From the NCBI GenBank assembly GCA_964187785.1, contig OZ076409.1, positions 20,834,001-20,898,000 on the forward strand: a stretch of DNA of 64,000 bases. The letters are read 5' to 3'. The stretch's first letter is position 1. Every line of letters begins with the position of its first letter. The notes under the pieces were generated by a model, which did not search any database, had not been told where the DNA came from, and was given only the letters and a program-made list of their open reading frames with translations. The translations under genes and the position numbers were made by a program. Below, piece after piece: positions 39,401 through 60,091 of this stretch. This stretch comes from Amphiscolops sp. MND2022 (taxonomy: Eukaryota).

Positions 39401-42400
39401 TGTGAAATATTTTGAGGGTTCTGTTTCAACTGACTTTATAACGAGGGTTCTCGTTCAAATTGTTTCGCGACTGTTCCAGGTTCGCGTAGCTTACAATTAT
39501 AAATACGAAGATGAGGCAGAAGCTACTTGTTACCGGGCAGAAAACGCTTACTGGCAATACGACGTACAAACTTACGTGTTTCCTTTCATCATGTCTAAAC
39601 GTCTGGCTTGCTATAACTACGACAGTGGCACCAGCGTTTCATTTGCCGTTTCTGGAATCTTCCTTACCAGAGACCAGTTTGACGGCAAAACTTTTTCATT
39701 TTTCAAAGATTGTTTCTCTAAAGAAATCACCTGTTACTTTCTTGACGAAGGCGGCTTTATCGTAAGAGCCAACTTGGAAACCAGACCACCGGTACCTGAA
39801 GAGCTCCAGAACAAATTCGCAATTGGAGCTAATCTATACAGCAAAGATCCTTGTCTTATGAGACAACTTGTTCACGATGGTATTTACAAACAAGTACAGG
39901 TTGTCAAACCCATGTGTTCATGTCAACCCAACGAGTTGTTCAACGAATCCAGTTGTGAAGTCCTGTCCAACATGGTTAAAACTTTTCTGGCTACTTTTTG
40001 GATGCTTCTGCAAAGTTTGGCACAAGTGGCTGTTCCTTCTTTCACTCATTTATGTTCACTGTTTTTTGCACCCTCGTTCGTGGAGCCCCTAGAAAAAGGG
40101 CCCTCTGAGACCCATATGTGTCAAAGGCAGCGTTTTTTTCAGTTTTTTTCGCTCATATTTTATATATGTGATAGCAGTAATTTGATTTCTCAGCCGCGTT
40201 TTTTTTACAAAGTTAGCTATACTCTGATTTTAGACTCGAGAAGTATCTTGCCTCATAGAATTAAACGAAAAGAAATATGTATCGTAACAGATTTTTAAAG
40301 GAGTTCTAAAAGATAATTAACGAAATTTTATTCATTTTTGCGCAAATGTGAATTGTTTTTCGAATCCTAAATCGTATGCTCGATCAATTCAGGACGGAAT
40401 GTATCGCAGTGATTACCAAGTTCATTATGCACAGAGTGACTAAAATGTAAGTGCCATTCGCTTAAAATTTTTTGGTTAATTGCTGTTACGACTACCTAAC
40501 GGAGCGTTATTTTGGGTAGTCGTTCTAGTTTTTATGGATGTTGATGTAGGTGCAATGAATATATTCTCAGGCTTTTCTGACTTCGGGTTTTCATATTTGA
40601 GTTGAGACAAGGAGTTTGAAAGAATTTGAATTTCCAAAAGAAAATCGTTTTATTAACGGTGTATAACAGTTCAACAATGATCACTATTAACTAACTGATT
40701 CAATTTTCAAAACCAACATATTTATACTTTCCTAGCATCATTTGTTCCTCACCTAAAAATTCCTAGGTATCAAAAAAATCGGGTTTGTTCACACAAAAAC
40801 CCAGTTGATTCATATTATTTCAGTCCCGCGTCACAAAATCAGGTATCAAAAATCCTAGTTGCGTCGCCCTTCCGTAACAATTGTTGAAATCATTTTTGTT
40901 CATACGATACACTTCCTGATTGACTGTCAAAATGGCGGGAAAATGAGAGCCTGCTTGATATTTTCATCGACGGAGGCACGCCGGCGTGATCAATATGTCA
41001 ATTTCCAAGTTGGAAATTCAAGTGCTCAAGACAAAAGTATGACAAGCAAAAATGACGACGTAACTAAGACGGAGTATATACTTTTGAGAGCGGAAACATT
41101 TGAATACTGATGAAAAGGAACAAATGATGCAGGAATAACCGTTTCCAGTTATTGCCAGTATTATAAGCACGAACATAAAACAACGTAAATATATCTAAGC
41201 TAAACATACAATCACATAAAAACTAAAACAACGGAGACCTTTCGGTCAACAAACTCCACACTTTGAAAAATGCTAATCAGAACAACATCGGTTAATAACA
41301 TAAACACGTTATTACTTCGATTGACAGTTTCGATTCAATAGTATGAATGCAGAACACTCAATGAAAACACTGGTATGAAGTTCATCTGAAAGGAAGATCC
41401 ATTCATATGACGTTGTCCTTACGTTGCATTCTGTTCACAAAAATTTTTCAATCATCAATTCTAGAGGAAATTTCATACTAAATTTTGTTCAGTTCCCTAA
41501 TTTTGTAACTACAATTGTAAACTTGCTCCGTACTGGCTCCGTACGTATTAAGATTTGGTATAGCTTTGCAAGCTTACAATTCACTCCGTAGTCGCTCCGT
41601 ACGTATTAAGATTAGGCATAGCTGTAATTTGCTCCGTAACTGCTCCGTACGTATTAAAATTAGGCATAGCTGAGCGGTGGTTTACGGAGGTATTACGGCA
41701 AGCTCAAAAATCATTCCAATTCTCGTACTAATGACGTCACAAAAATCATTCCAAATAACAACGCATTGCTAGCATAGCGTTCTTGATGACGTCACAAAAA
41801 TCATTCTAATTAGTTCATCAAAGCAAAATTAATTGTAATCGCATTCAAAGCGATAACAGCCGGGAGCGGTCTGTGACATTTGCAATGTATCTATCATTGA
41901 TATCAAGCTTCTTTGAATATGTAAATCGCAAAATAGTTCGGATACAACACCAAAATATACTTCGGATATAACGTCAAAAATTTTCATAGTGTTCAAAAAT
42001 TTATTGGTGGGTATACATTGCGAAAACCTAGTATCAGACAAAAAATGAGAATAATGAAGAGTCTCATAGTCCAAAAAAAGTAAAAGAGACCCTTTGCAAT
42101 TTTTTAACATCCATTCTTTTGCAAAATATCAAAAAAATGGAAAGGACCTGTTGGAGACGTAAAAAAATTTGAAAAAAGTCTCGCATTGTCGAAACATCGT
42201 AAGGTGGATCCTTTAGTCTTGTCCCGCTTTGTCGCGCTTGGCTTCGAGCAGAAACGTTCAATGATCTGCAGAATATGCGAAAATTTGTGTATAATCATGT
42301 CTTCATAAATAAACTACATCATAAACTTATCATGTCTCAGATAAGGAAATTCTGATGAACTAAACAGATAAATGGAAAAACTTTTGAGAAGAATAAAAAA

Positions 42401-45400
42401 TATATTTTTGGCAGAAACCCGAAGTCGTCATACTTCATGACGGAAACTTAGATGGTGAAAAAAACCAGACCACATTCTTGCCATACTTTCTGGGGGAGAA
42501 TATTTTCCGTATCTATTTTCATTTCTGAGAAATGTCAGCACTACAAATTGGAAATATTCAGATATTTTTAAATCTCTTTATTTGCGAACGAAAAAAATCG
42601 ACGCCAGTTAGCCCACAGAGCCAAATTAAGAATTGTACAAATTAAGAAACCATGGACTCCGCATTTGGTCGCGGTTCTGAGATATAGGGGATCGATAAAG
42701 GAAAACACTCAAAAATTGCGTTTTTAAAAAAACTTCTGTGCAAAAACATGACCATATGGGCATCTCGCAAAGCTCGAAGCCCCAAAACGGAAAAGAAGGA
42801 CCCTTTGCACTAGTTTAGATGCATTTCCGAAGTTTTCGTTTAGCTGAACAAACTGAACAAGAAATATAGAAATTTGTCGCATTCGCATCTGTCTTGAAGA
42901 AAAATTGAAAAATTAAAAAAGCTATATTTTGTTTTCAGCTATTGGCAGCATTCCCTATTACTCAAAAAAGTTTATGAAAGTCTTTATTGTCTGCCACGTA
43001 TAGTGTACTGAAGTTTCTTACGTGGTTTTCCGTTTGATCATTCCATTGATGCAACAAATTTGGAGGTATCAAATCATTCGCTTTTAACCAGTTGTAACAT
43101 TTATTTAAAGCATTTTTAAAACTTTTTTTCCTGCATCACAGTCCAATGGGTGGTTGCTGGTAAACGACTTTTTGGTTTTCGCCTCGTGTTAAAATCAAAA
43201 TTTATGTTGCAAGTACATCTAGAGTTCCTTGTTGAAGAAAAATATCTGTTTCGTGTGAAACAAATTCAAAACTTTCAAGTAACAGTTAACAAAAATTGAG
43301 AACTTTTTATTGAATCAATTTTTCAATTAATTGTTGATTGACGTGTTTGTTTCTCCGAAGAGAGCTAGCTATTCATCTTCTTTTTTTAAAAAAACGCTGT
43401 CAAAACATGGGTTACAGGAAAGTGATCAAGTTCCACTTCGGGGACAAGATATCTACCAAAGGGGTCCAGACTAACTGCTCTTCCACGTGTGCTTGTGTCA
43501 GCTTCAAGCAGGGACGTGTTCAGATCTAGATAGTTTTTAGATCAATCTAGATCAATCTAGAAATCAATCGTTTCAGGTCTAGATCTAATCTAATTCAGAT
43601 CTAGATCAATCCAATTCCCTGATTTGCTACAATCCTTATCGACACTTGTGACAATATATGTCAATTTAGTCCTAAACAGAGCAGCTATTTGGAATCGAGT
43701 TTGTTTTGTTTTTAGGTATTACCAGTGAACGGGGATCGAACCCTTCGTAGTTCCGTGTTTTTGCGTCAATCCACCTTATTGAATAAGGTGCTCTGCTTTT
43801 TCCCTTCCCCACATGTTTTGAAAAATAAATTTACCCTAGACAAGTTTATTAGATTTTTTTGTAATTCCTGTAACTAATATTCCATTTAATGCGATGACGT
43901 ACTTGTCAAACTTTGTAGAAATATTGAAAAATAATAGAAAATTTACAGCTGATTGAGTTAATTTATGTAACGTTACATAAATTAACTCAATCAGCTCTAA
44001 ATTTTCTATCATTTTTCAATATTTCTACAAAGTTTGACAAGTATGGGTGTCGCAGGCGGCCGCCTGCGATGGCAATTGGTATTCAGTGGCCTTCGGTTAC
44101 GACAGAGTGTTGCCAGGAACGACCCCCCTCAACTAAAGAAGATCAAGAGAGTGGACGCGACAATCGGGCTCAGAAATCAAAGTAAAACAAGATCGAAACT
44201 TTTACAAAAAAAACTATTTTGTGCTATTATTTTCAAACATGTAACTATATCTGTTTAGTGGTTGTGTTATATTAGTTACTTTTCAACATGTAAAATTGAT
44301 CAAATACATTAATAATTGGACACCAAGGCGTACAGGTAGAGGAAATGAGTTCAAATGTTTCCTCTCCTGTCGCTGAGGACGGCCAGTCCGATTATTAATT
44401 TGACCAATCACAGCGCAGTAGTTGATTAATTCATTCATTCTAGTATGGCGCAGTTTTGTATAATCGCCGTACTCGGCCTTTGTTTGTCTGTTTATTCAAG
44501 AGAGATTAAAGGACTGCTAGTCCAACTTGCCAAGCATCGCCTTTAATGCATCAATATATTGGTCCCTTCATGTCGAATTGGACAGTGAGGACGTAAATCT
44601 TTGGCGCTAACAAAGGTACAAGTATATTCATGAAGTGTTGCTATTTCATATTCCCTGGACTTACAGGGCTAATTACCATGCAATTTGTTAGTTGACATGA
44701 AAGGTTAAATATACATGTAAAATATGTAGCGTTGCGTTATTGTTATGTTGAGGAGGTTGCGTCCACATGAACAACTTAAGCCGCCAAGCTTTGATGTCTA
44801 TTTTTAGACCATGATGTTATAACGTGATGCTATTTATAACTTAGTGACTCTAAAAAAAGTCCCATGATGCTCTAAAGTTGAGCTGTCACCCTACCAAGGG
44901 TATATAAACAAGGTACTCGTGGTCCTGTGGACACAATTTTGAGAACCTTCACCGAAAGCAGTATTTTATCCTTTATACACTGTGAACAAGTACTATCAAC
45001 TTTTTGTTGGTAAAGTTTATTGGGATAATTCAAATATTTGCCCAATAGAAACATTTATGCCTTCCACAAGAAGACAGAAAGCTAAAGCTAGGATATCGAG
45101 AGAGTTAGACATGATGTCTGATATAGACAACCTAGACATAATGCTGGGGAATTCAGGAGAAATTTCTATAGAAAGAGAGCTAGCAGATGCAAATGAACAA
45201 TCCTCTGTTCAAGGTGACTACGACGCAAGTGAGTACCGAGGGAACAATTATAGTTTCACACAAGGAAATGAGCCAATTAGACAAAATGAAGTGAGACAAC
45301 CTTTTGAGACTTTTACGAATGAGTTCAATCTTAGATTGTCTCAAGAAATGGATTCCATGATGTCCATTGTCCACAATCAGATAAACAGAGCGATTAGCAC

Positions 45401-48400
45401 TGCTATATCAGAAAGAGTCATTTCAGAGATTCAAAACATTGTTAGCTCAATGTCGTCTTCGGGAAATAGGGACACTGAGGCTAGTATGTCCCCAAGTAGT
45501 CAGGAGAACAAGGAAAACTCATCCGGCTTAAAAACGAAAATAGTGAAAAAGGACTCACGGTCCGTCGGTGATTTGAAAGACACCGCGGGAAGTGGTCACT
45601 ACATGGTGACGGGAGCTAACGAAGCCCAACGGCAGATCCCTGAATTTCTGACTGGACGAATTCACTCAATCCCAAAACTGGAGAGACAACAATCTAACCC
45701 CAATTTCTCTCTGGGCACCACTCTGCCAGCCCCAGTACAAGAGGATCCTGAAACACCCCAGGATCCCCTGCATAGATTGGCCGATGTATTGGTCAACTTG
45801 CAAAATAAACCACAAACGATGACAATACGACCAGTCCAAACCACACCAATGACGTTTGATGGAAAGAGCGAGAAATTCGAACTTTTCGAGGACTTGTTCC
45901 ATACAATGATCAAAATGCAACCCATCATGACAGAGCAAATGAAAATTATTCATTTCCATTCCTTACTCAGGAAAGGGGCTCTGCAGACATTTAGGAACAT
46001 AAACTCGATAAACCGCCAAACGCTTGAGGACGTGCTGGTCATATTCCGGAGGAAATACGTAAAACCGCAATCACAAGCCACGGCAAAACACAAATGGCAT
46101 CGGCTCACTTTTGACCCAAATACCATGAAATTGCCAGACTTCTTACAAGAACTGAACCAGGGCGCAGAAAAAGCCTTTGGTGACAATGCAAAAAGCATGA
46201 TTGACAGCCTGTTGTACGCAAAATTACCAACGAAACTGAAACGATCTGTCAACATGGCCCGTTTAGAGAACGGGACCTACGAAGAGATAGTAGCTCATCT
46301 TGAAAGAAAGCTTGAGCTCAATGCACTAGAAGATTCAGACGACTTACCAATGGCCACCATGGCCTCAGCATCTACCAGTAATAACAATTTGCTGTCCAAT
46401 GGTATAAACACCAATAAGGACGCACAATGCTCTTATTGCAAAGACACAGGCCACTATTATAAGAGCTGCCCCAAACTGAAAAAGAAAAAATAGATGGAGG
46501 ACAAGAATGGCGAAAAACCACAACGTCCGACGTACCCGCCATGTGATACATGTGGGAAAAAGAATCACGCCACAGAACGGTTTTGGCAGGGCGCTGGAGC
46601 ACATCTACGACCCAAGAGGAACAAAGAAAACGATAAAACCAATGATGATTCCAATGAGGACAAAAACCCAAAAAGTCCAACAATAGTGAAACATCAACTT
46701 CAGGCCAATCATTTTCCAAAAAGCCTGAATCAAAAAACTGATTTCGCCACGACTCCAAATAAATGACTACATGTCAGTCCGACAATATGTCATTTCAGAT
46801 CCTCCAATAATAAAATTTCGACAGAATATTAACGACACCAATGGCATCCCGTCTGTTGTCTGGCAGAAACAGATGGAGAAAGCATACATCAAGACCTACA
46901 AAGTAGTACATAATGATCGACCAGACCGTTACTACGACAGAGACTACGCTAAAGACTTCGAGACTCAATTCCGACCCTTACAATTAATTGAAGATTACGA
47001 CCCTCAATATATTGACCCCGAGTACGGAAAAGATCCATACTGGGACGACGATTTATACGATAGACAATCGTTACAATTCTGCCATGATGATTACCCCCCA
47101 ACGGATGATGAGGAAGACCCTGAGATTCCTAATACAAAACTGTCCAGGGCCCTCATAGAACTGTGGCAGACGAAAACTGAAGCACTCCATCAAGAAAACG
47201 CGGAGGAATACCTAGACCAACAAACATATGAATTCGAACCGTCTCTTTTAGACGGAACAGCCTTCTCAAACGTTCTGGTCATAAAGGAAGGAGAACCGGC
47301 GTATAAAGCTCTCTCCACCAACTTGGGCCTTAAATTCAAGAGACGGATGCTGTATTTCCCAATGGATTTCGGAGAACTACCCCTGGACGGCCCGATAGAC
47401 ACTGGGGCCCACTCCAGTGCAATACCGGAAGCAGACTTCAGGAAAATTCGCCTACTGGCACCACAATCCATAGTAAAAGAGTGTCCTGCTCCTTCATTCC
47501 AAATAATGGTCGCAAACGGAGACTTAGAAACTCCGAAAAGCACCGTCGAATTAAAATTCGAAGTGGGAGACATTGAATTCCATGAAATTTTCATAGTGAT
47601 GGAAAAACTGTCTAGCCCCATCATTGGACTGATGTTTCTTCAAAGGAACCACACCGTGCTGGACATGCGCCAAGGTATCCTCAACTTCCCCTACTTTTCG
47701 ATGCAACTAAAAACGGCTGACCACAAATACTCAAATGTGATGGAACCCATCTTCAATCCCGAGGACGTCACAATTCCTCCAAACGATCTTGCGGTCATCT
47801 CGATACAGTCCCAAGTTTATGCTGAAAATGCGGTAACAGGAATATTGCAACCCAGTGATCTACTACATGAAGAAGGAGACGTCACTTTTTGCGCCGCAAT
47901 AGTCACACTACACGAAGGGACTATGAGAATGCATGTCAACAACTTTACAGACCAACCCTACAAAATCAAGAAAGGGTTGCATTTTGCAAACTTTTCGGTG
48001 ATGACTCCCGAGCAGATGAAACATGACAGACCAATAGACCCAGTGTCCACTTGGCATTTACTGAACGAAAATGAAGAAGATGCTGTTTACTACATCATTA
48101 GCCTTCTTAAAGCCAACAGAAATAACGACCAACATGAACAATATTGGTTCCCGACGCCTGAGAACCCAGGAGACGAAGCGTCACATACTCCCATACAGCA
48201 AAGAATTCTCAGGGAACTACGAAGCTTGGAGGAAATCGAAACACTTAACCCCCAGGACAATGAGGAATCTAGACGCAAATTCCTTAGCAATTTTGACTGG
48301 AAGGACTCAATGCTGCAACAACCTGAAATAAAGCAAATAGAAACTCTTTTGATGGAATTCCATGACATTTTCGCTCGCCATAGATTTGATATTGGCGAAA

Positions 48401-51400
48401 ATGAGGAGTTTACAGTCAAATTGACCCCCAAGGATGAATCACCCGCCTATAGCCAGAGCTTGCCTACTCCAATAAATCTTAAAGAAGACATATTGGTTGA
48501 ACTGGCATTACTTCATAAATATGGTATTATAACGACATTACCGTTCTCAAAGTATGCCAGTCCCATTTTGGCGCAGAAAAAACCCAATGGCAAATTGCGA
48601 CTATTAGTTGATCTGAGGATAATTAATAATCTTATTTCAGACGATTATATCAACAACAATCACCCAGTCAGTACTCTAACGGATGCAGCGCAACACATGG
48701 CCGAGAAAAAATTTTTGTGCAAACTTGACTGTTCGCAAGCCTATCACTGTCTTCCTATGGCAGACCAGCGGTCCATCGAAATGCTGGCCTTTAACTTTGC
48801 TAGCAGAACCTTTGCCTATCGAAGACTGGCACAAGGACTCAGTCGAGCCCTTTCGGCCTTCTCCAACTTCATGCGAGAATATTTGGACCGAGTCATTAAA
48901 GCTGATCAATGCGCTCAATATGTGGACGATATCGGCATTGCAGCCAAGGACGCCAATCATCTGATCGCAAATCTCAGGGCTACCTTTGAATGTATCAGAG
49001 AAGCGGGTTCGATATTATCCATGCACAAGTGCCACTTTGGCACTACCGAAATCGACTTTCTTGCGAAAACCATTACCCCTGAGGGAGTAAAACCCCAAAA
49101 GGAGCGAATCACTAACTTCTTAGAAAAAACTAAATTTCCCAAGTCCAAGAAAGCCTTACACTGTTATCTCGGTTTTCTCAACAACTACAGGAACTATATA
49201 CCAAGATTATCCGAGAAACTAGTCCCATTTTTTCAATTGCTCAAAAAGTACCAGAAGGTCCTGGTAACCACAGAATTAGTTGAGCAATTCAACGAAATTA
49301 ATAGAGACTTAGACAAATGCAGCCAATTGGCGCTGAAACAACCCCTGCCGAACAAACAACTAGTCCTTATGACTGACGCAAGCTTTACGGCAGCCGGTTA
49401 CGCCATATTGACTGAAGATGACCCTAATCAGAAATTCACATCTGTCAAAAAGTCCTATGCGCCCATTGCATATGGATCAAAAACTTTTACTCCTTCTCAG
49501 CTCAAAATGTCGATATATGCAAAGGAGTTTCTAGCCATATATTACGCATTTAAGGAGTTTGGACATATTTTCTGGGGAACACCACAACCAGTAATTATCC
49601 TCACAGATAATAAATCGGTCACGAGGTTCTTCCAGACCAAGATCATACCACCGCCACTCTGGAATGCTTGTGATTTTGTAATTCAATTCAACTTCATCAT
49701 AGCTCATATTCCAGGCAAAAACAACACAGCGGCGGACTACTTGTCCCGTATGGAAATGGACCCTACTGAAAAGCTAGTCCTGAAAATACCAGAGGATGTT
49801 GAAACTCGACCGATCGAAGTCAATGTCCAATCCGCCGGAGTCTCTGAAGAAGAACAGGTCTTCTTTACCGAAGAAGACAGCGAAACCGAAGAACAGATTT
49901 GGGAAAGAAAACAGCAATCCAGAAAGGGACTCATGGTCCCTGAGACAGTGATTCAAATTGATTCCATTTCAGAAAATACGGTAGAGGAAATCACCAATTT
50001 CACCCAAAAACTGAGAAGAACGAATCAGATACTGCTCGAGCAATCCAAGGACCCAATTTTGCTCCAATTGAAGGCAGAAATTCAGAAAGAAGAATACTCT
50101 GAAGAAATCCTTCAACAGGACATTCGGTACAAATATTATTTGATCAATATCGACCGAATAGTCCTCAAGGACGAAATAGTGACACGACAGTATTATGATG
50201 AAACGGGACAAATCAAACATCACCAGATATTATTACCAAAACATCTAGTTCGAGAATTATTACAAGCAATACATGGCACGGCACATCGACACCCAGGAAT
50301 TTCCAAAATGCTACAGGAGATTCGCCAAAAGTACTACTACCCTGGAATCGCTAAACATGTCAAAAAAATGGGTAGATGGCTGTGAAATATGTGCCAGGGA
50401 CAAACGGGTCCCTAATACGTTAATTACCCCGGAAATACTGAATTTGCCTGAATGGGACCTTGGGCCAGAAGATGCCATGCAAATTGAGCTGTTACCAAAT
50501 TTACCAACTAGTTGCGGATACCAGACAGTAATGACAGCAATAGATGTGTTTTCCAGATATCTATTTGCCTACCCGCTAATTGAGGCAACAGCCCCAAATG
50601 TGGCCAAGGTGACAATTGATATAAAGACAAAACACTCATATTTGCCGACAACCCTCATCACAGACAAGGGGTCCGCATTTACTTCAACAATTTTAGCGGA
50701 AATCACTGCAATTTTGGGCAACTACAAAGCATCCGCAAACTATTGGCAAACTTGAAAGGACACACGCCTCCTTGAAGACCAATCTGAAGATGGCCTCAGG
50801 GGAATATCGACGCCAATGGCACAAGTGTTTGCCATTAGCTGTGCTCAACTATAACACTACTTATCACTCTAGTATTGGATGTGAGCCAAGCAAAGTTTTC
50901 CATGGCCGAATTCCCTACAATGTCCTTGACCACAAACTAGGAAACAATCCTAATAAAAACATCCTACCAACAACTGACTTCGGGGAAGAGTCACAGCAGA
51001 GAACAAAAATCCTCATTGATCAAACGAAAAAGAATATCATGCAGTCGTATTTAAAGTACAAAGAGTATTCGACCGCAAGGCCAAGGCGACTCCACTACAG
51101 GAGAAAGACTACTGTTTTGTCCTTCAACCGAAAGCGGATAGTCAAGGCTCCAAAATACCATTTAGGGACTTCCGATGGATTGGTCTTTTTATTGTTCAAA
51201 AAGTCTTGCTAAACAACAATTACATAGTGCGTCGTCTAAATACGAACAAAACGCAGATCTTACATCGTATTAGACTCAAAAAATTTGTCCCAAATACCCC
51301 ATTGGAGGACAAATATACGCTAGAAAAATCACAACCGGACGACAAAATAATATTACTGCAAGACGATCTGTATACTATTGCATGGGAAGCCGACTTTGAG

Positions 51401-54400
51401 TACGAGCTGTTTGAACCGAGAAAAAATGATTGGTCCGACACGGACACGCGCCTATCAAACGATGCCGCGAGCGGCGAAGTGGACTATTACGTCAACGAAG
51501 ATGAACGCAGCAGCACGAACGACGATGAACGCAGCAGCGGAAAGAACGAAAATGACGTCACCGAAAATGAAATACGACCGAGATCGGCCAGCAGCCGTAA
51601 CGCGTCGTCCCTTCTGAATGAATCGCCTAGTTGGACGGAAAATGGAAATGACGTCACTAACGAAGTAAATGGCGATGTAAATGTTCCAAAAAGGGGCGCA
51701 GATATCACCGTGCCCGGAACATCGGAAAATGAAAAATCTGAGGAAAACTTGAGCCCTAGAGGAGGGAAATACAAACTTCGACCTAACCCCAACCCCAACT
51801 TTTCTGATGAATATAGATACTAGTCAGATATGTAAATTAAGGGTCCCACAAAGGCCTTTCGATTACCATATCTTTTTACTGGGACTATTCTGACTATATA
51901 TGAAAATATACATGAAAACTGGAACAAAAGACACAACAACATATAATACAATAGATGCCAAAGAATCACAACTATAAGTTTACACAAGGAGCAACTAAAA
52001 ACAAATGTACATTATGTACATTTAGTGCTTACTGGACCCCTGCTGTAATTCCTTAATAGTTTTGTCAATCTCCGAGGAAGGAAGATTGCCGAAATAGGCG
52101 AACTTGGTAGACTTCCCGGGTGAAGAAAAAGGAGTTCCTCCTGCCTCACTTGGCTCCGAAGACTGAGCGAAATGAACTGCCCTAGCCGTCCCAGCTCCCG
52201 AAATTTCAACTTTGAATGCAGCAAGGAGTTCTTTATGGATAGAGGACTGCCCAAAGGAATCTACATGGGACCAAGGGTCCCCAGAGACATTCCCAGACGA
52301 GAATTTGGCCTCAAGAAGATGATAGCGTGTTAGTGCAGCCTCAGTGACACAATCGTTTACTGACCCAGGAACGTAAGCGAGGTAAGCCTGAGCAGGAAAC
52401 AAAACATCTGACAAACGGCAAAGAACGTCGGAAGAATCCGCAGAATGAAATTTGATGGCAGGAAGAGAAGTGCTAATTTCCGTCAAACATACACAACTAA
52501 GACGGAAAAGATGGAATAAATGTGGACGTGTATAAAGTGCGGGCATGCCAGTTAGCAAAGTAACGACGTCTCGAATAAGATCAGGAGAACTGATAAGATC
52601 AGGATAAAGGTTTCGGAAGTCATCAACAAATCCAACGTACTCGTCTCGGCATTCGGGTGCGGAGCTTTCGTCGACCCATCCTCGCAACTGGAAAGTGCTG
52701 AATAGAGACGAGAAGCAGAATAGAACCTGGTCCATAGGCTGCGAAGAAAGGACTGTTGGGTCAAAGGATGCCATTCCCCTCACAATGTGAGCAGTTAAGC
52801 GAATGTCTCCTAAGAGAGACTCTATAATGTTGACGACGGAAGCACGGGCCTGACTGATAAATCCTTCTCTCGCATTCTCGGCAAGTTTATCGACGGCAGC
52901 CAATTGCTCTTTCTTTCCCCCAGTGTCCTTCTTAGCCTTCTTGTAGGAAAGAGAATCTATGTCCGACTTCAACTTCAGGCTCAGAAGAAAGTCCCTACTG
53001 GACAGCTGACGAACGCCTTCCAACTGTAACTGCATCAACCCAGACCAGTCGGTGTCCACTGGGGTGATTTTTGGCAATAAAGATCGCTGGCACAGCTCAC
53101 GAATGTAGCGGCAGATTTCTCGTCTAAATAAACAAAACTCGGTCAATTACAAACTGAGCACCCAATAAATAAGCCTTATGATTGGGACCTTCATGTTGTG
53201 ATGGAGCTGACAAATCTCGAAGAAAGACTCTAACCAACCCCTAATCCTAGAAGTATGTTAAGCAAAAGAATGGTCAGACTAACAATCGCGGACTAAACGT
53301 CCGAAGAGCTCGATCTTTAAGGGGAAGAACATGTCGTTGACGATCATCCAGTCCAGACTCTGCGGCTATAACAGAAGACAATCAACGAAGTGATGTAAGG
53401 AACAACTTGGACTGTGGCTACCTCCTGACCTACTATACGACAACTACGTAGTAACGAACCGAAAAGTACTAACTTTTCCTTTAACTCCTTGCATGACTTG
53501 TGTGGGAGCCTTCATAGTGAGGTAGTCCAGAACTTCTTGCCAAGGATGAGTCAATTCAGTGCATATGCCCGGGATGTTCCTTAGTTCGAAGCTGGATGCC
53601 TCGATCGCCTATTAAAAAGTTACTAGTGTCGACCTGCCGTAGAAGGAGGACAAAACACAGGTAAAGAACTTCCTTACCTTCGTTAGTTCTGGTGCCTCGA
53701 GAGTCCAGGGCTCAGTCAGGATGCCGCTCAAGAATACTATCAGGTATCGGAGCTGAGAAAAGAAGTCTATAGGACCGAAGACGCTTCCTCCTTCCTGGTA
53801 CATTAAGGTCTGTAAGGACATCACGTCAAACCTGAAGGGGTATTGGATCCCATGTGGGAACATTCCACAATTGTCTAGAGTGCGAACCAAAGCGGCCGGA
53901 CATCCAGACACGCTGACGAGGCCTTGTTTAGTGGAAATGGCAGATAGCAGTCGGGAGATCCCTGCAACATAGGTCTGTGGGAACCCAGCGGATAAAGGGC
54001 AGCGGAACAAAGGCATGCGGACAAGGGATTCCTCCTTCCAGAATCGTACACTCATCACCTGACTGCGGCCGATTACTTCAAATTCTAGCGCATACATGTC
54101 ATTAGAGACGATATGGCTAGACAAGTCTTCAATGCTTCAGGTGAAGATGTGTTGGAAAATGACCTAAAGTAAGAAAGACGAGAAGAGTTTACTTATGAAA
54201 CAAAAACATCTTGAAAGAGAAGGGGAATCAAAGTACGTACGGTCAAGGTAGCGGAACTCCAATCGAAAGGGGAAAATTGTTCCTTGTGGTTCATATATTT
54301 CCCCACTCTAGACCATAGTGATTGTAGCAAGAGGATGTTGCCGTCGTGAGGGATGAAACTGCCAATGAGATCTATCTGGGCACTTGCCCGTTGGTCCTCA

Positions 54401-57400
54401 GTGGTTTGCTGGCTTCCTGTATTGGCGATATAGTCATCATAGAAGGTGAACTTCTCTCCTACATTGACAAGAGGGGCATTTTCGAAATAAGGCTTCTCCC
54501 GTTCCAGCTCAAGAGGAGTCAGTACGTGGCCATCTCTCCCTCGGACCTGATGCTGTGTGATCCCAGTTATTTGGTCATTAACGCCAAGGTGTTGAAATCG
54601 CCAACGCTGGTCTTTCCTCAGGTGTGACTCACCCTGGTAATGCGTGATGATTTCTCTTGCCCCTTTTGAATAGATGGACACGTTCGTCTTACAGATTTGG
54701 CAGTAGAATTTGTGTTGATTATGTGCTGGGTCGAGGGGTCCGGTTACGAAAGTTTTCGTCCATTTGATGCCTTTAAAGTGAGCCTCTTTCATGACGTTTC
54801 CTGGCTTGGTGGCAACTCGTCGACGCTTTGCTGGGGGTTTTGAAGTTTGACGTTTACCTGCTGTCTTGGGTTTTAGCCGAGACAGTGGCGCTCAGTCCTC
54901 AATACTGTAACCGCTCCCAGGACTAGCAAGCATCATGGGTCCGGTGTCTTCTTGTGGGCTTGTTTTCTTACGGGGAGTAACCACTTGTGGGGACTGGTCG
55001 AATTCAATCTGTAGATCTAGGCTCCCAGGGTCTTCATCGGAGTTGAATGCCCCGCTTGTGTACCCATCGCTGGATAGGTCAGTTTCATTGCATTCCCCAC
55101 TGGAACTAGAACCAGAATCAGGATGTGGTGTTCCAGCCCGTCTCACATGTCGACAGCGTTCCTTGGTGATGACCTTACCATCGGCGGCCTGCAAGAGTAA
55201 AGATTTCATCAGGTGGAAAGATGAAAGAAGCGACTCGTCAGAAATGGTCCGTAGGATAGTGTGGATTTGGCCTTCGCTAAAGGCGACGACTGGATGGCCA
55301 ATGGGTAACTTGATTGGACGATTCTCTGTAAAACGTTTCCGAAGCGCCGCTCTCCCACTAATTGACAACTGTCGCGGTTGCGTCGGTGTGGACTTGGTGG
55401 GCTCAGGTGAGTCCATGATAGGATCCGCAGAGGCGTTTGGAGCCTGGACAATCTCTTCTTCCTCCTCTTGGGAAGAGGAAGGGACCGTGAAAAAGCCAGA
55501 GCTAACCCCACGTAGCACAGGACCACTAACTCCTGACCCGTCCAGTAAATCCTCGACTTCGCTCGCGTCAGTGGAATACAAATCTTGGACCGTAGGTCTT
55601 GGGGCAGCTTTACGATCATCTTGCTTCTCCTCTTTTTCGCCTGAGGAATCCAATATCTTGCCGTCAGTCTTGGTCTGGATTTCGGTACTCGGGGGACGTC
55701 TTGGCGTGACTTCAATTGTGCAAGACTCAGATTCCTTATGAACAGTGTCATTAGTTGTGGAGTTTTCGACCTGGGACGTAGGGACGAGTGTTGGGTCAGC
55801 GACAGTACTGTCTCGTTGGGCAATAGCTGCCACAGTTCGTTCAGCATATGCTGATAAACTTTCAGAATTGGAACCACTTGAGGCAATCGATGGAGGGCGA
55901 TCAACGGTTACATCCTCTTTTGGATTAGTATCCTTAGACGCTTCACTAGTAGCCTGCAACTCAGGGACTTCTTTACAAGGATTCTCAGGGACTGTATTCT
56001 CAGATGACGCCATGTCTAAATTGATACAACACTGATATTAGCAGTGAACTTCCTGTACGAACCAAAAACCGCATAAAAAGTCTTCCGGAAGCAGACAAAC
56101 TTGAACACTTGTGAACACTTGTGTTATTTGGACAGGAAGTACGTGAATGAAATGAGAGCCCTGATCAAGCCTCAGATTAATTCAAAGTTTTCAAGATTCA
56201 TAGAATACGGAAGTCTACTGACCTGAGTGATTGCAAAGACGAGCCCAAGTTGATTCCAGAACCTGTAGTGCAATAGACGATAGAGGGTAGTGAATTGCGG
56301 AATGTGACTGTTGGGAACGCCCTGGTGACGTGGACAGGATGTCAAAGATAAGCAGAATTCAGTATGTCCTTGGCGGTTAAGGGATCAGCAGACAAAGCGT
56401 CCAGAATATGGTGTAAAGTAAATTCAAATGCGTACGACTGAAGGACTAGATACAAATGGTAACTAATAACTAAACAATACTAGCGAGGAAGTACTTGATG
56501 GAAATTGAATGTAAAAGCAATAGAATGGTGAACCAACAATTTGACAAAATGTCGAGATTGGAGTTCGTAGCTATACAGTTTGGTGTCAAATTTACAATTA
56601 CCTACAAGTTACGCTATTATTTGATAAAGACTGCCAGCTATATCTACATTATTTTACATTATTCCCAAAACTTTGTTATTCTATGCAATTAATCCATTAT
56701 TTTATAATTATTTTCATTATTTCACCATTTTATTTCATTTCATATTATTTTCAAGGTCATATTATTTTATTCCTTATAAGGATTTACGGCCTTGAATCGC
56801 CATTTTACGAATGAAATCTAAATCACGAAATCTGATTGGCTATCATGGGGAGGACGAGACAGCGTGGCCTTCGGGCGTATCTTCACCTACTTAAAACCTT
56901 CAAGTGGGTCATGAGTGTTAATAAACACTCATCTTGATGCTTAAGAAATGAGAGTGGTGTTGAGGGCTACGGGTGTCAACATTGCCGCTGTCGGTAATTT
57001 CAAAGTGATCAGAGCAGCTAGTTGAAAGAATGTTACCCGGAAAATTTTGTTATTGAAAAATACCTCAGAAACGAAAAGGGAAACCCGGGAAAACACAAAC
57101 CGAGAAACAACGAGACACAGCGATCCGACAAGGAGAGGATCGCCTTTATTGCAATTTCAATTAATCAGATCAGTTGCTCTAGAAACTTTGTTTTAATTTG
57201 AAATCCTCACTTCTCCGAAATTGCCAAAAAACTGTTAAAAGACAGGTATATGTCTGATATCTCTGAGACAATTCCAATGGATTTCCAAGGCGCTGCTCAA
57301 TCAGAAGGGGCCCGGGCAATTATATGCATTTCTAGTGATGAGGAGAAAATGATGGACTCAGACTGTGGGTACTCGGTGGACGATTTGTACTTATCGTCGG

Positions 57401-60091
57401 AAGAAGAATCAACAGATGTAGAAATCATGGCTAGATGCATCGAGAGACAGCTAACTGAGCCAATTGCTATTCCCAACTCCGGGACATCAAGTACGCAAGT
57501 TAGGTGTGGGACACCTAAACCAAGCTTCCCACCTTTTCCTACATTCTCTCAGCAGTTTTTTAAGCTGGGTTGGGGAAATGGACCGGTAGGACGAGATACC
57601 CGAGTCAAGGCCACTCACCCTATCAACATTTGTAGGGACTTACGCCCTATGATTGATACGCCAATGTCGCCTCCCCCAGAGGACAGAGGGCCGTCCTGTA
57701 TGCAAGAGACGCCAACTTGCTCGTATTTAACGGACACTGCCTCAATCGAAACAGTTGCGAACCACTTTGACGGCATGGCTTTATCCGAGTGCGCTGGCCT
57801 TGCAGGCTGTTCAGATTTGCGTAATTTGCGGGAAATCGGTCCAACAAATTCAAGCGGAAACAGTCAATGATTACATTGATAAGACTGTCGTGCCGGGTGA
57901 AACCCTTGCGTGCGGAAACTGAGAGGAGGAAAAGGGCCTTTCTGGACGGGATGGCTGCTGGCACATTTTTACTCATGCCAGGGGGAGTGTCGCAGGCGGC
58001 CGCCTGCGATGGCAATTGGTATTCAGTGGCCTTCGGTTACGACAGAGTGTTGCCAGGAACGATCCCCCTCAACTAAAGAAGATCAAAAGAGTGGACGCGA
58101 CAATCGGGCTCAGAAATCAAAGTAAAAAAAAGATCGAAACTTTTACAACAAAACTATTTTGTGCTATTATTTTCAAACATGTAACTATATCTGTTTAGTG
58201 GTTGTGTTATATTAGTTACTTTTCAACATGTAAAATTGATCAAATACATTAATAATTGGACACCAAGGCGTACAGGTAGAGGAAACGAGTTCAAATGTTT
58301 CCTCTCCTGTCGCTGAGGACGGCCAGTCCGATTATTAAATTGACCAATCACAGCGCAGTAGTTGATTAATTCATTCATTTTAGTATGGCGCAGTTTTGTA
58401 TAATCGCCGTACTCGGCCTTTGTTTGTCTGTTTATTTAAGAGAGATTAAAGGACTGCTAGTCCAACTTGCCAAGCATCGCCTTTAATGCATCAATATATT
58501 GGTCCCTTCATGTCGAATTGGACAGTGAGGACGTAAATCTTTGGCGCTAACAAAGGTACAAGTATATTCATGAAGTGTTGCTATTTCATATTCCCTGTAC
58601 TTACAGGGCTGAATACCATGCAATTTGTTAGTTGACATGAAAGGTTAAATTTACATGTAAAACATGTAGCGTTGCATTATTGTTATGTTGAGGACGTAGC
58701 GTCCACATGAACAACTTAAGCCGACAAGCTTTGATGTCTATTTTTAGACCATGATGTTATAACGTGATGCTATTTATAACTTAGTGATTCTAAAATTAGT
58801 CCCATGATGCTCTAAATTTGAGCTGTCACCCTAGCAAGGATATATAAACAAGGTACTCGTGGTCCTGGGGACACAATTTTGAGAACCTTCACCGAAAGCA
58901 GTATTTTATCATTTATACACTGTGAACAAGTACTATCAACTATTTGTTGGTAAAGTTTATTGGGATAATTCAAATATTTGCCCAATAGAAACATTTATGC
59001 CTTCCACAAGAAGACAGAAAGCTAAAGCTAGGATATCGAGAGAGTTAGACATGATGTCTGATATAGACAACCTAGAGATAATTCTGGGGAATTCAGGAGT
59101 AAATCCTATAGAAAGAAAGCTAGCAGATGCAATTGAACAATCCCCTGTTCAAGGTGACTATGAGGCAAGTGAGTACCGAGGGAACAATTATAGTTTCACA
59201 CAAGAAAATGAGCCAATTAGACAAAATGAAGTGAGACAATCTTTTGAGACTTTTACGAATGAGTTCAATCTTAGATTGTCTCAAGAAATGGATTCCATGA
59301 TGTCCATGGTCCACAATCAGATAAACAGAGCGATTAGCACTGCTATATCAGAAAGAGTCATTCCAGAGATTCAAAACATTGTTAGCTCAATGTCGTCTTC
59401 GGGAAATAGGGACACTGAGGCTAGTATGTCCCCAAGTAGTCAGGAGAACAAGGAAAACTCATCCGGCTTAAAAACGAAAATATTGAAAAGGACTCACGGT
59501 CCGTCGGTGATTTGAGAGACACCGCGGGAAGTGGTCACTACAATGGGAACCGCAAAAACTTCAGATTGCTCTCGATTACGAGTAAGAGTTTTTAGGACAT
59601 AACTAGCCGGTGATCTCTGCGCCTCTTTTGTTGTTAAATTGCAACTAATTGCTCACATGCTTTGTCTCTGTATTAAATTCATGTACTTCTGAACACCCCT
59701 GCCCTATACCTGGAAACAGTACTACGCCAAGAAGATAATGAACTCCAATATGGTTGTCGTGTCTCTTCTGAAGGATGGCGGAGTGCAATGCGAAAACTGC
59801 AACGATCGCCACCCAGACCGACTCACCCTTGCAGACGAGTTTTACAAGTTTGAGGACAAAAAAGGCGGCTCCATTCAGAAAAATGGGAAACCAGTTAAGG
59901 AGTATAAAGTCAACACTTGCAACTACGTGGCTCGCGCCGAGAGGTCTCAGCAAAAAGACTGTTTTGATTCGTATGACTTGGAGAAACCTCTTTTCAGCCA
60001 TGATTGCAACTCTCATTCTTTATGCCAACCAAACGTTGGGTTAATCATCGCTCTACTTTTGTATCTTCTGCTGTGTCTTTCCAGAGTATAG
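6267..60091 (+). CDS. cacna2d: Voltage-gated calcium channel alpha2delta-like subunit, full gene span (16 exons, about 1202 aa)
   Basis: Exons join in phase and sum to 3609 nt. Family motifs appear in order: VNTQHSQVLIPSDV, YMYFATTSGAVRLYPA, YDVRF..SY..PKMVVIAIDSSGSV (MIDAS), ATNQNK, LTDGG, LPCSANGYFY, LLGVSSVDV, CYFLDEGGFIV, KKIMNSNMVVV, DCFD..HDCNS, then a hydrophobic tail. Confidence 0.88.
7890..9600 (+). pseudogene. Decayed viral/retroelement envelope (class I fusion-like) glycoprotein gene
   Basis: KRRTR (8216-8230) is followed directly by hydrophobic ALPLAAVAIGAI*LFGTG. A Cys-containing ectodomain remnant (GIWFVLS..YPGCRI..IRSDLELC in ORF 8842-9285) and a TM-like segment ILIMGLTSSLLSMLLHLLFMYMII (about 9478-9550) follow. 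Many stops and frameshifts; boundaries approximate. Confidence 0.65.
12269..12780 (-). mobile_element. HINE-like repeat copy (another diverged copy at about 11400-11975)
   Basis: AACAAG...TCGGCGCCATATCTAAGGCTCAAAA at the left end and CGCCGACTAAAA at the right end. Confidence 0.65.
13923..14073 (+). CDS. cacna2d: alpha2delta-like exon 2
   Basis: tag|GTG acceptor; helix VFTMDDDLTDLTSLKNAMQMRLQQSEKAASAIRFASE; inferred phase-1 GC donor AAAG|GCTGGT. Confidence 0.7.
14470..14609 (+). CDS. cacna2d: alpha2delta-like exon 3
   Basis: ttttgcag acceptor; ...TFTQDTSYRYYNKVNTQHSQ; CAG|GTCAGT donor. Not present in the ORF track. Confidence 0.85.
15427..15595 (+). CDS. cacna2d: alpha2delta-like exon 4 (VWA_N/Cache)
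   Basis: VLIPSDVHYC...ILWTRSLNDLY...YMYFATTSGAVRLYPAS; cag acceptor, G|GTTCGC donor. Confidence 0.9.
15633..16442 (+). mobile_element. HINE-like repeat copy
   Basis: TTTAGTCGGCGG start; GGCGCTGACTTTGGCCGTTCCCG..GGCTTGTT end. Confidence 0.65.
17018..17299 (+). CDS. cacna2d: alpha2delta-like exon 5 (start of VWA, MIDAS DxSxS)
   Basis: YDVRFQQSY..PKMVVIAIDSSGSVNG..ILETLSDSD; tttag acceptor, G|GTTAGT donor. Confidence 0.92.
17515..18221. mobile_element. Candidate solo LTR (707 bp)
   Basis: GC-richer block bounded by a perfect 7-bp inverted repeat TGTAACG...CGTTACA. Only a 3-bp flanking match (TTG), not a clean 4-6 bp TSD. Confidence 0.45.
18234..18380. repeat. 147-bp near-perfect palindrome made of two head-to-head HINE-like termini
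   Basis: TGGTAACAAGTCGGGACC...GTAGCC-G-GGCTAC...GGTCCCGACTTGTTACCA, centred at 18307. Confidence 0.9.
18520..19119 (+). mobile_element. HINE-like repeat copy
   Basis: CTAGTCGGCGC start; GGCGCCGACTTGAGACGTTCCCGTCTTG end. Confidence 0.6.
19157..19361 (+). CDS. cacna2d: alpha2delta-like exon 6 (VWA)
   Basis: ATNQNKQAFRN...ANFELMFDEA...CLKYLIVLTDGG; taag acceptor, AG|GTTAAT donor. Confidence 0.9.
19450..20040 (-). mobile_element. HINE-like repeat copy
   Basis: AACAAGGCGGGAACGACTCAAGTCGGCGTCATATCTAAGG end; the body matches the split copy at 24241-27212. Confidence 0.65.
20320..20885 (-). mobile_element. HINE-like repeat copy with a duplicated terminus
   Basis: AACAAGCCGGAAACGGTTCAAGTCGGCGCC end; CGCCGACTAAAA occurs twice (about 20824 and 20873). 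Confidence 0.65.
21280..21400 (+). CDS. cacna2d: alpha2delta-like exon 7 (end of VWA)
   Basis: PEVRLAYFLEG...LPCSANGYFYK; tttttag acceptor, AAG|GTTCGT donor. Not present in the ORF track. Confidence 0.88.
21916..22009. repeat. Hairpin inverted repeat (about 40-bp arms)
   Basis: GATTCCTACAAAAATCTCACAACCTATCGGAAAAAA ... TTTTTTCCGATAGGTTGTGAGATTTTTGTAGGAATC. Confidence 0.85.
22200..22446 (+). CDS. cacna2d: alpha2delta-like exon 8 (Cache)
   Basis: WSNLH...VMTVGMPVYN...LLGVSSVDV; ttag acceptor, G|GTAGGA donor. Confidence 0.9.
22824..23075 (+). CDS. cacna2d: alpha2delta-like exon 9
   Basis: GNLLLLNSKGSVVF...EILELE; G|GTTAG donor. An alternative in-phase acceptor exists at 22845. Confidence 0.75.
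23769..24038 (+). CDS. cacna2d: alpha2delta-like exon 10
   Basis: DMQYVASVTEVRYSWSRL...; gtag acceptor, A|GTGAGT donor; phases fit both neighbours. Confidence 0.8.
24241..27212 (+). mobile_element. HINE-like repeat copy split by a LINE insertion (halves 24241-24586 and 27047-27212)
   Basis: The two halves are contiguous in the uninterrupted copy at 19450-20040 (AAAAACGTTTAATGAGCCTAAA on the minus strand). Confidence 0.75.
24587..27046 (-). mobile_element. 5'-truncated CR1/L2-type LINE (RT domain, C-terminus, 3' UTR, (TAA)n tail)
   Basis: ORF 25922-27088 has NYRPISLL, QFGFR, FLDLKKAFETV, GVPQGSILGP, LFADDT; ORF 25277-25813 is the C-terminal region. Tail at about 24587-24603; near-exact TSD GTT(C/T)AAT at 24580-24586 and 27047-27053. 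Confidence 0.92.
27474..27659. mobile_element. Small TA-flanked Tc1/pogo-like MITE remnant
   Basis: TA|CCGTA...GAATAGAAGTCGC at the left and GCGGCCTCTATTC...GAAATACGG|TA at the right. Confidence 0.45.
27761..27974 (+). CDS. cacna2d: alpha2delta-like exon 11
   Basis: ttctag acceptor; FYPVIR..IYCPGL..VYEFL..GCKQ..LIYD; AG|GTAATT donor. Confidence 0.8.
29401..29953 (+). mobile_element. Best-preserved HINE-like copy with an internal tRNA-like cassette; followed directly by a second copy from about 29953
   Basis: 5' TTTAGTCGGCGC; 3' GGCGCCGACTTGG-GCCGTTCCCGGC-TTGTTT; A box 29558-29568, B box 29609-29619. Confidence 0.75.
30905..30980 (+). CDS. cacna2d: alpha2delta-like exon 12 (tentative)
   Basis: The only candidate I found that bridges a phase-2 donor (27974) to a phase-0 acceptor (38434): gcag|A LYDKNRSATAASCSKYSCRQTMQNQ|GTCTCA. 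No family motif supports it. Confidence 0.45.
31050..38240 (+). mobile_element. Heavily degenerate Ty3/gypsy LTR retrotransposon; LTR pair not recognisable, boundaries approximate
   Basis: Coiled-coil Gag-like ORF 31371-31895; CFNCGQRDHFAREC knuckle at about 32548; protease-like GLIVTGS..FLLGRNFL (33270-33540); RT (SPWA, LRFC, DAYPLPRID, MPFGMCNS, YIDD; 34239-34969); RNase H (TDAS, VDNQAL, RNAD; 35150-35520). Most of the integrase is missing. Confidence 0.88.
38434..38610 (+). CDS. cacna2d: alpha2delta-like exon 13
   Basis: tttag|AELNEQASFIKFSSGLLVVREP...HTQ|GTTAGT; resembles the Cache 'F.gT..Gl.R' strand; phase 0/0. Confidence 0.65.
38864..39011. repeat. Imperfect long inverted repeat
   Basis: CCTGTTTCAAAGTCTCCAGCAGAATCAAAATTCAATTCTATTCGT ... 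ACGAATAGAATTGAGTTTTGATTCTGCTTGAGACTTTCAGACAGG. Confidence 0.8.
39480..40126 (+). CDS. cacna2d: alpha2delta-like exon 14 (distal Cache, alpha2/delta linker)
   Basis: ccag acceptor; AVSGIFL, CFSKEITCYFLDEGGFIV, GANLYSKDPCLMRQLVHDGIYK, CSC; inferred GC donor CAAAG|GCAGCG. Confidence 0.85.
41517..41810. repeat. Minisatellites: about 3x (GCTCCGTACGTATTAAGATTAGGCATAGCT core) and 2-3x (TGACGTCACAAAAATCATTC)
   Basis: Direct repeats visible at about 41535, 41594, 41642 and at 41706, 41732, 41787. Confidence 0.75.
43418..43496 (+). CDS. cacna2d: alpha2delta-like exon 15 (delta)
   Basis: tacag|G KVIKFHFGDKISTKGVQTNCSSTCAC|GTCAGC; phases fit exons 14 and 16. Confidence 0.75.
43521..43610. repeat. Low-complexity (AGATCT/TCTAGA/GATCAATCTA) microrepeat
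   Basis: Repeated ATCTAGATC and AATCTAG words. Confidence 0.6.
43900..44043. repeat. 144-bp loopless palindrome abutting the gypsy insertion
   Basis: Centre TGTAAC|GTTACA at 43971/43972; 72-bp arms with 2 mismatches by eye. Confidence 0.92.
44048..45603 (+). repeat. 5' LTR (1556 bp)
   Basis: Direct repeat of 57988-59542 with about 45 differences by hand count (about 97% identity); CCAAT at about 44404 and TATATAAA at 44901. Confidence 0.95.
45057..46741 (+). pseudogene. Gag (starts inside the LTR; capsid-like region and two zinc knuckles)
   Basis: ATG at 45057 (MPSTRRQKAK); TFDGKSEKFELFEDLF; CSYCKDTGHYYKSC and CDTCGKKNHATERF. In-frame TAG at 46491 and an inferred 1-nt loss near 46670; the inferred original end is SKN* at 46741. 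Confidence 0.88.
45604..45618 (+). other. Primer-binding site (priming tRNA not identified)
   Basis: TGG-initial sequence TGGTGACGGGAGCTA immediately after the LTR-terminal CA. Confidence 0.75.
46738..51823 (+). pseudogene. Pol: aspartic protease, dUTPase-like spacer, RT, RNase H, integrase (integrase frameshifted)
   Basis: IDTGA at about 47395; YASP..KLRLLVDLR; QYVDD at about 48916; MTDAS, AKEFLA, LTDNK, TAADYLSR; H..H..C..C, IDVFSRY, ITDKG, LERTH across ORFs 46771-50385, 50273-50755, 50772-51212 and 51206-51823. Confidence 0.93.
52022..56013 (-). pseudogene. Spliced antisense cargo gene of the gypsy element: acidic/Ser-rich N-terminus, NLS, BED-like zinc finger, hAT-transposase-like body
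   Basis: ORFs 54892-56013 and 54193-54792 are one frame split by a single TGA; PAKRRRV; FYCQIC..H....H. GT-AG introns 54240-54164, 53677-53609 and 53473-53366 join all pieces in phase with ORF 52022-53146, with several remaining in-frame stops. Confidence 0.75.
56014..57249. promoter_or_regulatory. Putative internal bidirectional promoter region of the element
   Basis: Non-coding gap between divergent ATGs (56013 minus, 57250 plus); AT-rich tract at about 56690-56780 and CTGATTGGCT (inverse CCAAT) at about 56832. Confidence 0.4.
57250..58076 (+). pseudogene. Sense accessory ORF overlapping the PPT and 3' LTR; unknown function
   Basis: ORF 57250-57870 (IICISSDEE, acidic) continues through two inferred frameshifts into VQICVICGKSVQQIQAE... 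and ETERRKRAFLDGM...GTIPLN* (stop at 58076, inside the LTR). Confidence 0.6.
57980..57987 (+). other. Polypurine tract
   Basis: AGGGGGAG directly before the TG of the 3' LTR. Confidence 0.8.
57988..59542 (+). repeat. 3' LTR (1555 bp), containing a duplicate of the Gag N-terminus (ATG 58997)
   Basis: Matches 44048-45603; ends CACTACA followed by the TSD ATGGG. Confidence 0.95.
59720..60091 (+). CDS. cacna2d: alpha2delta-like exon 16 (delta C-terminus, GPI-signal/TM-like tail)
   Basis: aacag|YYAKKIMNSNMVVV..CENC..TCNY..DCFD..HDCNS..LIIALLLYLLLCLSRV*. Confidence 0.85.
   Translation, partial: YYAKKIMNSNMVVVSLLKDGGVQCENCNDRHPDRLTLADEFYKFEDKKGGSIQKNGKPVKEYKVNTCNYVARAERSQQKDCFDSYDLEKPLFSHDCNSHSLCQPNVGLIIALLLYLLLCLSRV

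Follow-up and report, generated by a model that had tools for sequence, protein, structure and literature searches.

An unnamed accessory gene of gypsy-type LTR retrotransposons that crosses the polypurine tract into the 3' LTR and may encode a SUMO-reading regulator

A 15.5-kb gypsy-type LTR retrotransposon lying at 44048-59542 of the window (the whole 64,000-nucleotide stretch of DNA analyzed here) carries an accessory gene, which we call ORF X, that is read across the polypurine tract (PPT) and ends inside the 3' LTR. Judged from sequence, ORF X is conserved as an accessory gene in a large set of gypsy-type elements, and the family appears to be previously unnamed: our searches returned no name, Pfam family or known fold for it. 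Extra ORFs of LTR retrotransposons are already known and, in the accessible text of the literature compared, are env-like, enzymatic or antisense. Here the extra ORF defines an unnamed family of hundreds of divergent members and is read through the primer of the plus strand and the end of the LTR, a layout reported from complex retroviruses. By analogy with viral regulators, we tentatively read its product as a nuclear SUMO-reading regulator that would promote transcription of its own element, either as a transactivator or as an anti-silencer, and we hold this reading with slightly more doubt than belief.

The element was delimited by comparing the window with itself, which gave a 1558-nt repeat of 97% identity (44047-45603 vs 57987-59542) whose first base belongs to the flank. 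The two LTRs differ by 42 substitutions (18 transitions and 24 transversions) and 3 gap columns. The hallmarks of Ty3/gypsy elements are present (paired TG...CA LTRs, target-site duplication, primer-binding site and PPT), and the Pfam domains of pol follow the gypsy order protease-RT-RNase H-integrase (Table 1). The integrase region is split into four pieces and the antisense gene bears an in-frame stop (near 54892, where natural relatives read through), and hence this copy is either decayed or affected by sequence errors. Codons 1-182 of gag lie inside the LTR (45057-45603, and again at 58997-59542), and the frame runs on across the primer-binding site. Since gag begins and ORF X ends inside an LTR, both LTR ends overlap coding sequence. 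The gag start of Ty1 likewise lies within the LTR, but just short of its end. The gag parts of the two LTRs show 13 non-synonymous vs 1 synonymous codon differences over the first ~147 codons. The LTR has no canonical AATAAA from which to place R and the poly(A) site.

Table 1. Features of the element and of ORF X in the window
Feature	Position	Strand	Remarks
5' LTR	44048..45603	+	1556 bp, TG...CA; 5-bp target-site duplication precedes
gag	45057..46493	+	ATG 45057 inside LTR; zinc knuckle at end
Primer-binding-site-like sequence	45604..45620	+	Starts TGG, directly after 5' LTR, within gag frame
pol	46729..51823	+	Protease, weak dUTPase-like domain, RT, RNase H, integrase (Pfam)
Antisense gene, several pieces	52022..56013	-	C2H2-type finger (Pfam E 0.0008, below cut-off)
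Non-coding spacer between divergent antisense gene and ORF X	56040..57249	.	1.2 kb; CCAAT box at 56835
ORF X, accessory gene, ATG to stop	57250..58076	+	Twice broken; frames + tblastn
ORF X piece 1, residues 1-188	57250..57813	+	Acidic disordered N-terminus, SIM-like motif, helix, first conserved Cys, PxSPP motif
Phospho-SIM-like IICISSDEE	57319..57345	+	Begins at ORF X residue 24
ORF X piece 2	57818..57910	+	CxxCG + first hairpin helix; CVIC at 57818, second frame
ORF X piece 3	57912..58076	+	Second hairpin helix, PPT codons, 29 U3 codons, fourth conserved Cys (nt 58005)
Polypurine tract (PPT)	57980..57987	+	8 purines only, read within Pro-Gly-Gly-Val codons
3' LTR	57988..59542	+	1555 bp, TG...CA; 5-bp target-site duplication follows

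Other observations concern the element as a whole. Both of its priming sites, the primer-binding site and the PPT, are coding. A dUTPase-like domain lies between protease and RT (~47670-48000, + strand; Pfam Herpes_ORF11, E 0.03), and all nine PDB rows for this region are dUTPases or dCTP deaminase (E 0.08-0.8). Among solved structures the RT/RNase H region (48400-49700, + strand) scored better against foamy virus Pol (E 3e-27) than against Ty3 (E 1e-18), which is a ranking of scores and not a phylogeny. A near-perfect 144-bp palindrome (43900-44043, with 72-bp arms at 97%) stops a few bases short of the insertion site.

In this copy ORF X is interrupted at about 57813-57818 and 57910-57912. 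A natural relative of 273 aa nevertheless covers the window by tblastn in three successive frames, each 82-89% identical (residues 1-188 at 57250-57813, 183-220 at 57797-57910 and 220-273 at 57912-58073), which confirms one ORF of ~275 aa broken twice, as the initial annotation had proposed from the letters alone. The two breaks may be mutations or sequence errors, and the copy is dead as read. The chance of a frame staying open for 206 codons at this place is about 1e-6 per start point. The landmarks named in that annotation were all located where it had put them: the ATG at 57250, IICISSDEE, the CVIC pair in another frame, the PPT read as Pro-Gly-Gly (codons at 57978-57986, third frame), and a stop that ends at 58076, 89 nt into the LTR. 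Its description of the position as nef-like also holds, with ORF X crossing the PPT and ending inside the U3 of the 3' LTR.

Conservation of the frame in other copies, on which the proposal of a single gene depended, was borne out by natural unbroken relatives. A search with piece 1 matched 46 of 87 candidates, all of them from ENA and none named. Among them are unbroken proteins 271-278 aa long, from clusters of 27, 23, 70 and 138 members, and several of these proteins share their C-terminal ending with the third piece of ORF X. Unbroken relatives overall span 253-283 aa and occur in many multi-member clusters of up to 163 members; in six divergent clusters the full (modal) length was found in 6, 10, 13, 6, 7 and 12 of 15 listed members. 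Some relatives are called with a longer N-terminus (319-364 aa). The profile searches suggested at the outset revealed a large family: with a 14-member profile, 448 representatives (50% clustering) passed E<=0.001, 228 of them still passing 1e-10 and 63 passing 1e-30, and a profile of 62 members found 205 matches among 3297 candidates, those listed (120) being all from ENA and unnamed. One member comes from JGI/IMG. The 20 divergent members compared have a median pairwise identity of 29%.

Indirect signs in the sequences suggest that relatives of ORF X also sit at an LTR. Six of 292 proteins continue into sequence matching the LTR of the window, and the codons at the junction vary as constraints on the DNA would lead one to expect: of 122 rows, 74 have Gly or Arg at position 243, and 121 have Val, Leu or Met at position 245. 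Pro occupies position 243 in 33 of the 122 rows and breaks a purine run, so the run can be shorter still. A search for related loci gave pattern matches in metagenome contigs from JGI (121) and in viral contigs (44), and confirmed none of them. Divergent members (clusters P0116, P0117, P0119, P0122 and P0235) were seen on contigs of 0.7-2.8 kb, and some full-length members on contigs of 1.0-2.8 kb; these short contigs may be transcripts or come from other hosts.

The family could not be attached to anything named. Look-ups of 4 and of 10 clusters gave no protein name, Pfam gave no family above cut-off for the window piece or for 14, 12 and 62 members, sequence searches of the PDB with members (14 and 62) and profiles returned only weak rows, and no named or cellular homologue was present among the 46, 150 and 120 matches listed. 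No description of the family was found in the literature searched, although Repbase, Dfam, subscription journals and supplements may hold such elements; the accessible portions of PMC9040795 and PMC9911081 do not describe it.

Conservation along the protein is concentrated in a few places. An alignment of 62 rows served for this analysis, of which 57 had been selected on the CxxC and C-terminal motifs (four rows were dropped and five added by hand). Because this alignment was partly motif-selected, cysteine counts were redone without a motif filter on 383 proteins. In non-redundant rows, and with the numbering of the 273-aa form, four cysteines are kept at 89-98% (Cys128 in 102/114, Cys190 in 142/154, Cys193 in 143/154 and Cys251 in 119/122), the last of them coded within the LTR. 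Among the other eight cysteines of the reference protein, five are kept in at most 21% of rows and none in more than 41%. These four conserved residues suggest one zinc site, and we infer that Cys128, Cys190, Cys193 and Cys251 bind a single zinc ion. The CVIC pair that had been pointed out in an adjacent frame is indeed there, but it is half of a four-cysteine module that had been missed. A C2H2 or Spin-doc type zinc finger was considered and rejected: one member reached E 0.11, and no His is found among the nearly invariant columns after CxxC.

AlphaFold gave a confident hairpin (197-235, with pLDDT 86-96 for residues 191-230), a helix at 51-69 and a low-confidence remainder, in a model that is weak overall (pLDDT 62, pTM 0.32; an earlier model built from 14 sequences was poor, with pLDDT 41). 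A fold search with this weak model gave no match at E<=0.001 in the PDB and viral libraries, and the best match (Z 5.3) covers 45 residues of a generic helical hairpin, by which a new fold is not shown. ORF X thus offers a four-cysteine module without a recognized fold. In the ESM Atlas, unnamed clusters were reached at 0.88 for the whole protein and at 0.92-0.93 for the C-terminal part, the latter sharing 122-140 of 256 features and one of its clusters having Plavaka in 11% of members; we regard this as a lead only. The protein is acidic (net charge -15 to -24 in five members) and has no transmembrane stretch, the highest 19-residue hydropathy being 0.49-1.61 in 21 members, which led us to discard an env-like ORF3. 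The PxSPP motif is kept in the family. Of 131 near-full-length members, 120 have [ST]PxSP, a proline-directed kinase motif, and only 24 have a basic stretch resembling a nuclear localization signal. The best conserved residues of all are coded by the PPT and the first 12 LTR codons (0.72-0.80); part of this conservation may lie at the DNA level, because the block coincides with the PPT and the LTR end.

The N-terminal motif (I/V)-I-x-(I/L)-S-S-D is kept in the family and fits a phospho-SUMO-interacting motif (phospho-SIM). The window copy, IICISSDEE, has the phospho-SIM form, in which a hydrophobic core of four residues comes first, then Ser and acidic residues; the definition of SIMs, their link to CK2 and their loose nature as motifs are taken from PMC12751080 (in part). 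A strict pattern (three aliphatic residues, then three that are each Ser, Asp or Glu) was found in 12 of the 21 divergent members picked by hand, where 500 shuffles of each would lead one to expect 0.33, and since related sequences are not independent, this comparison shows only that the motif exceeds composition. Conservation in the SIM region is 0.69, compared to 0.43 and 0.50 in its flanks and 0.29-0.32 in the linkers. Among the 131 near-full-length members, a redundant set, the strict pattern is carried by 67 and a Pro-Ile-x-Leu-Ser-Ser-Asp variant, which was defined with the data already in view, by 36. At least one of the two patterns is present in 98 members; the remaining 33 show neither, and they include a subfamily that lacks the hydrophobic core. 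Where rows are alignable, the core is kept at its three key positions in 54, at least 46 and 54 of 57, and in one member the SIM pattern appears at residue 187 instead of the N-terminus. The SIM-like motif of the initial annotation hence stands as a feature conserved well above its surroundings, but not as one common to all members.

From this motif, the protein probably binds SUMO, a tag that hosts use to silence such elements. SUMO acts in piRNA-guided silencing and recruits heterochromatin effectors (10.1101/2021.07.27.453956, in part), and the motif points at this SUMO step of transposon silencing. The phospho-SIM of cytomegalovirus IE2 serves both transactivation and auto-repression (10.1101/655282, in part), and for this reason the motif cannot choose among activation, anti-silencing, repression and targeting.

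Upstream, ORF X and an antisense gene are divergent and share a 1.2-kb spacer, a candidate internal promoter. The antisense gene is conserved (115 longer relatives among 944 candidates), has a long disordered N-terminus and is probably spliced. TRP28 (PF04195) gave no match in its four window pieces or in eight relatives. Its later pieces resemble, presumably, a degenerate hAT transposase; an origin from hAT transposases found no backing in Pfam or the PDB and was set aside. The U3 and the spacer share three 11-mers, within chance (mean 1.2, maximum 5 in 100 shuffles). Thirteen of the 115 antisense relatives lie on contigs of the same size as one of 252 ORF X entries, one such contig being of 12 kb, and the identities to the window of the size-paired entries are not significantly rank-correlated (rho 0.25, p 0.41). 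These size matches weakly suggest that the two genes co-occur in other copies.

In the reading we prefer, a SUMO-reading regulator, a subgenomic RNA would start in the spacer and end in the 3' LTR, as for foamy virus tas and bet, and would be translated into an acidic, largely disordered hub protein whose C-terminal part folds into a small module. Cys128, 190, 193 and 251 would hold a zinc ion beside the helical hairpin, and this module would contact a partner. The N-terminal motif, once phosphorylated by CK2, would bind SUMO on chromatin proteins and promote transcription of the element by recruiting SUMOylated transcription factors, like cytomegalovirus IE2; alternatively, the protein would compete with SUMO-dependent silencing factors. 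Because it has no basic DNA-binding region, it would need a partner for specificity, and the nearest candidate, speculatively, is the divergently coded antisense zinc-finger protein. Taken further, a large clade of env-less animal LTR retrotransposons might have independently evolved the layout of complex retroviruses, with an antisense zinc-finger protein finding the DNA of the element and a SUMO-binding, zinc-clamped protein, read across the PPT and U3, disarming SUMO-dependent silencing at that place. We consider this larger scheme unlikely as it stands; if true, the two-gene cassette would be a retrotransposon-encoded counter-defense against piRNA/SUMO heterochromatin. In any case, ORF X is a small, concrete protein with which to ask if animal retrotransposons encode counter-silencing or transactivating factors.

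Known systems resemble ORF X in part. Lentiviral nef overlaps the PPT, and its product has an N-terminal myristoylation glycine. Foamy virus Tas binds DNA, whereas the ORF X protein is strongly acidic, and adenovirus E1A, disordered and acidic, acts as a hub and has a zinc module of four Cys. Like ORF X, lentiviral nef and MMTV sag/rem are 3' sense ORFs entering U3 (PMC12789967, in part); ORF X shows no sequence or Pfam match and no significant fold match to these genes' products, has neither a Met-Gly start nor a transmembrane segment and only 29 codons in U3, and its host is an env-less retrotransposon. The initial annotation had implied no homology to nef, and rightly so: no Pfam or PDB sequence match to Nef was obtained for 14 and 62 members or for the profiles, and Met-Gly starts 1 of 131 members, so ORF X was not taken for a Nef. 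Foamy virus tas and bet lie downstream of the structural genes and ahead of the 3' LTR; these accessory genes are made from an internal promoter and activate the LTR (PMC12789967, in part). They are our working model, with no homology found. For transactivation, IE2 uses a hydrophobic core with CK2 serines and acidic residues behind it (10.1101/655282, in part), and the ORF X motif is likened to this arrangement. IE2 and E1A are proteins of DNA viruses and serve as analogies only: IE2 has its own DNA-binding domain, and ORF X has no LxCxE (0 of 131 near-full-length members).

Among retroelements, plant Retand, Grande and RIRE2 place 3-6.6 kb between pol and the 3' LTR, a stretch that carries conserved antisense ORFs whose products probably bind DNA (PMC11963269, in part); the window element has 6.2 kb there. 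In contrast to them, TRP28 is unmatched in its antisense gene, and the accessible text of PMC11963269 describes no conserved sense gene crossing the PPT. Other plant LTR elements with extra ORFs (PMC7264820 and PMC11963269, as far as their available text goes) include none resembling ORF X. Gypsy-like elements of bdelloid rotifers share with the window element a non-env third ORF and a dUTPase between protease and RT, whereas their ORF3s (env-like, transmembrane, GDSL esterase or DEDDy exonuclease) do not match ORF X (PMC5408684, in part); the words 'overlap' and 'SUMO' do not occur in the available text of that paper. The 3'ORF of snakehead retrovirus combines an acidic N-terminus with a cysteine cluster, like ORF X and with no homology found; a role as transactivator had been suggested for it, and tests found that the promoter does not need it (PMC12193657, in part), which shows that anatomy of the ORF X type can mislead on function.

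The same anatomy can be read in other ways. A protein acting independently of SUMO, be it through an acidic activation domain or as a cytoplasmic adaptor that redirects or degrades restriction factors like Nef or Bet, would explain why a quarter of the members do without either SIM pattern and yet keep the serine-acidic stretch and the Cys module, and [ST]PxSP is commoner than the SIM; retention of the hydrophobic core in most alignable rows, its reappearance at a new position in one member and the near absence of Met-Gly starts argue the other way and make this rather unlikely. The SIM and the small folded module would equally suit an adaptor for integration targeting or nuclear import, riding with the pre-integration complex and tethered through the SIM to SUMO-rich chromatin. 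Targeting adaptors are known in LTR elements, and Pfam reported no chromodomain on the integrase pieces; a separate ORF needing its own RNA would, however, fit a regulator better than a particle component, and we regard such an adaptor as quite unlikely. The SIM could also recruit SUMOylated repressors to the element and limit its copy number: auto-repression by IE2 is likewise strengthened by SIM phosphorylation (10.1101/655282, in part), and the effectors that SUMO recruits are heterochromatic (10.1101/2021.07.27.453956, in part). The persistence of ORF X in many high-copy clusters and an N-terminus acidic like an activation domain speak against a negative self-regulator, neither of them decisively, and we find it distinctly improbable.

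Two further explanations receive very little credence from us. The frame could persist through constraint on the underlying DNA (PPT, LTR end, promoter) without a functional protein, as the peak of conservation on the PPT and first LTR codons and the residues favored at 243 and 245, which match purine and TG constraints, would have it. Yet Cys128, Cys190, Cys193, the hairpin and the SIM are conserved 150-660 nt upstream of the PPT at an overall identity of ~29%, the clusters agree in start, length and stop, and the Pro at 243 runs against the purine constraint, leaving this explanation extremely unlikely. Recent capture of a host gene fragment by this copy or by the family has a precedent in LTR elements (PMC7264820, in part), and is just as hard to sustain given the lack of a named or cellular homologue among the matches listed, the six relatives that read on into LTR-like sequence, and identities of ~20% at the lowest, which indicate long residence in elements.

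Elsewhere in the window, three other retroelement remnants with RT matches lie at 1384-2421 (+), 25922-27199 (-) and 33089-34742 (+), the last of them within a GC-rich block (~31000-38000) and with a weak protease match. A 325-codon frame at 39321-40298 (+) matches calcium channel alpha-2/delta (Pfam E 6e-5) and is possibly a host exon. Dispersed short repeats in both orientations, several of them in inverted pairs, occur at 4178-30474 and 42073-42853, and are suggestive of non-autonomous DNA transposons.
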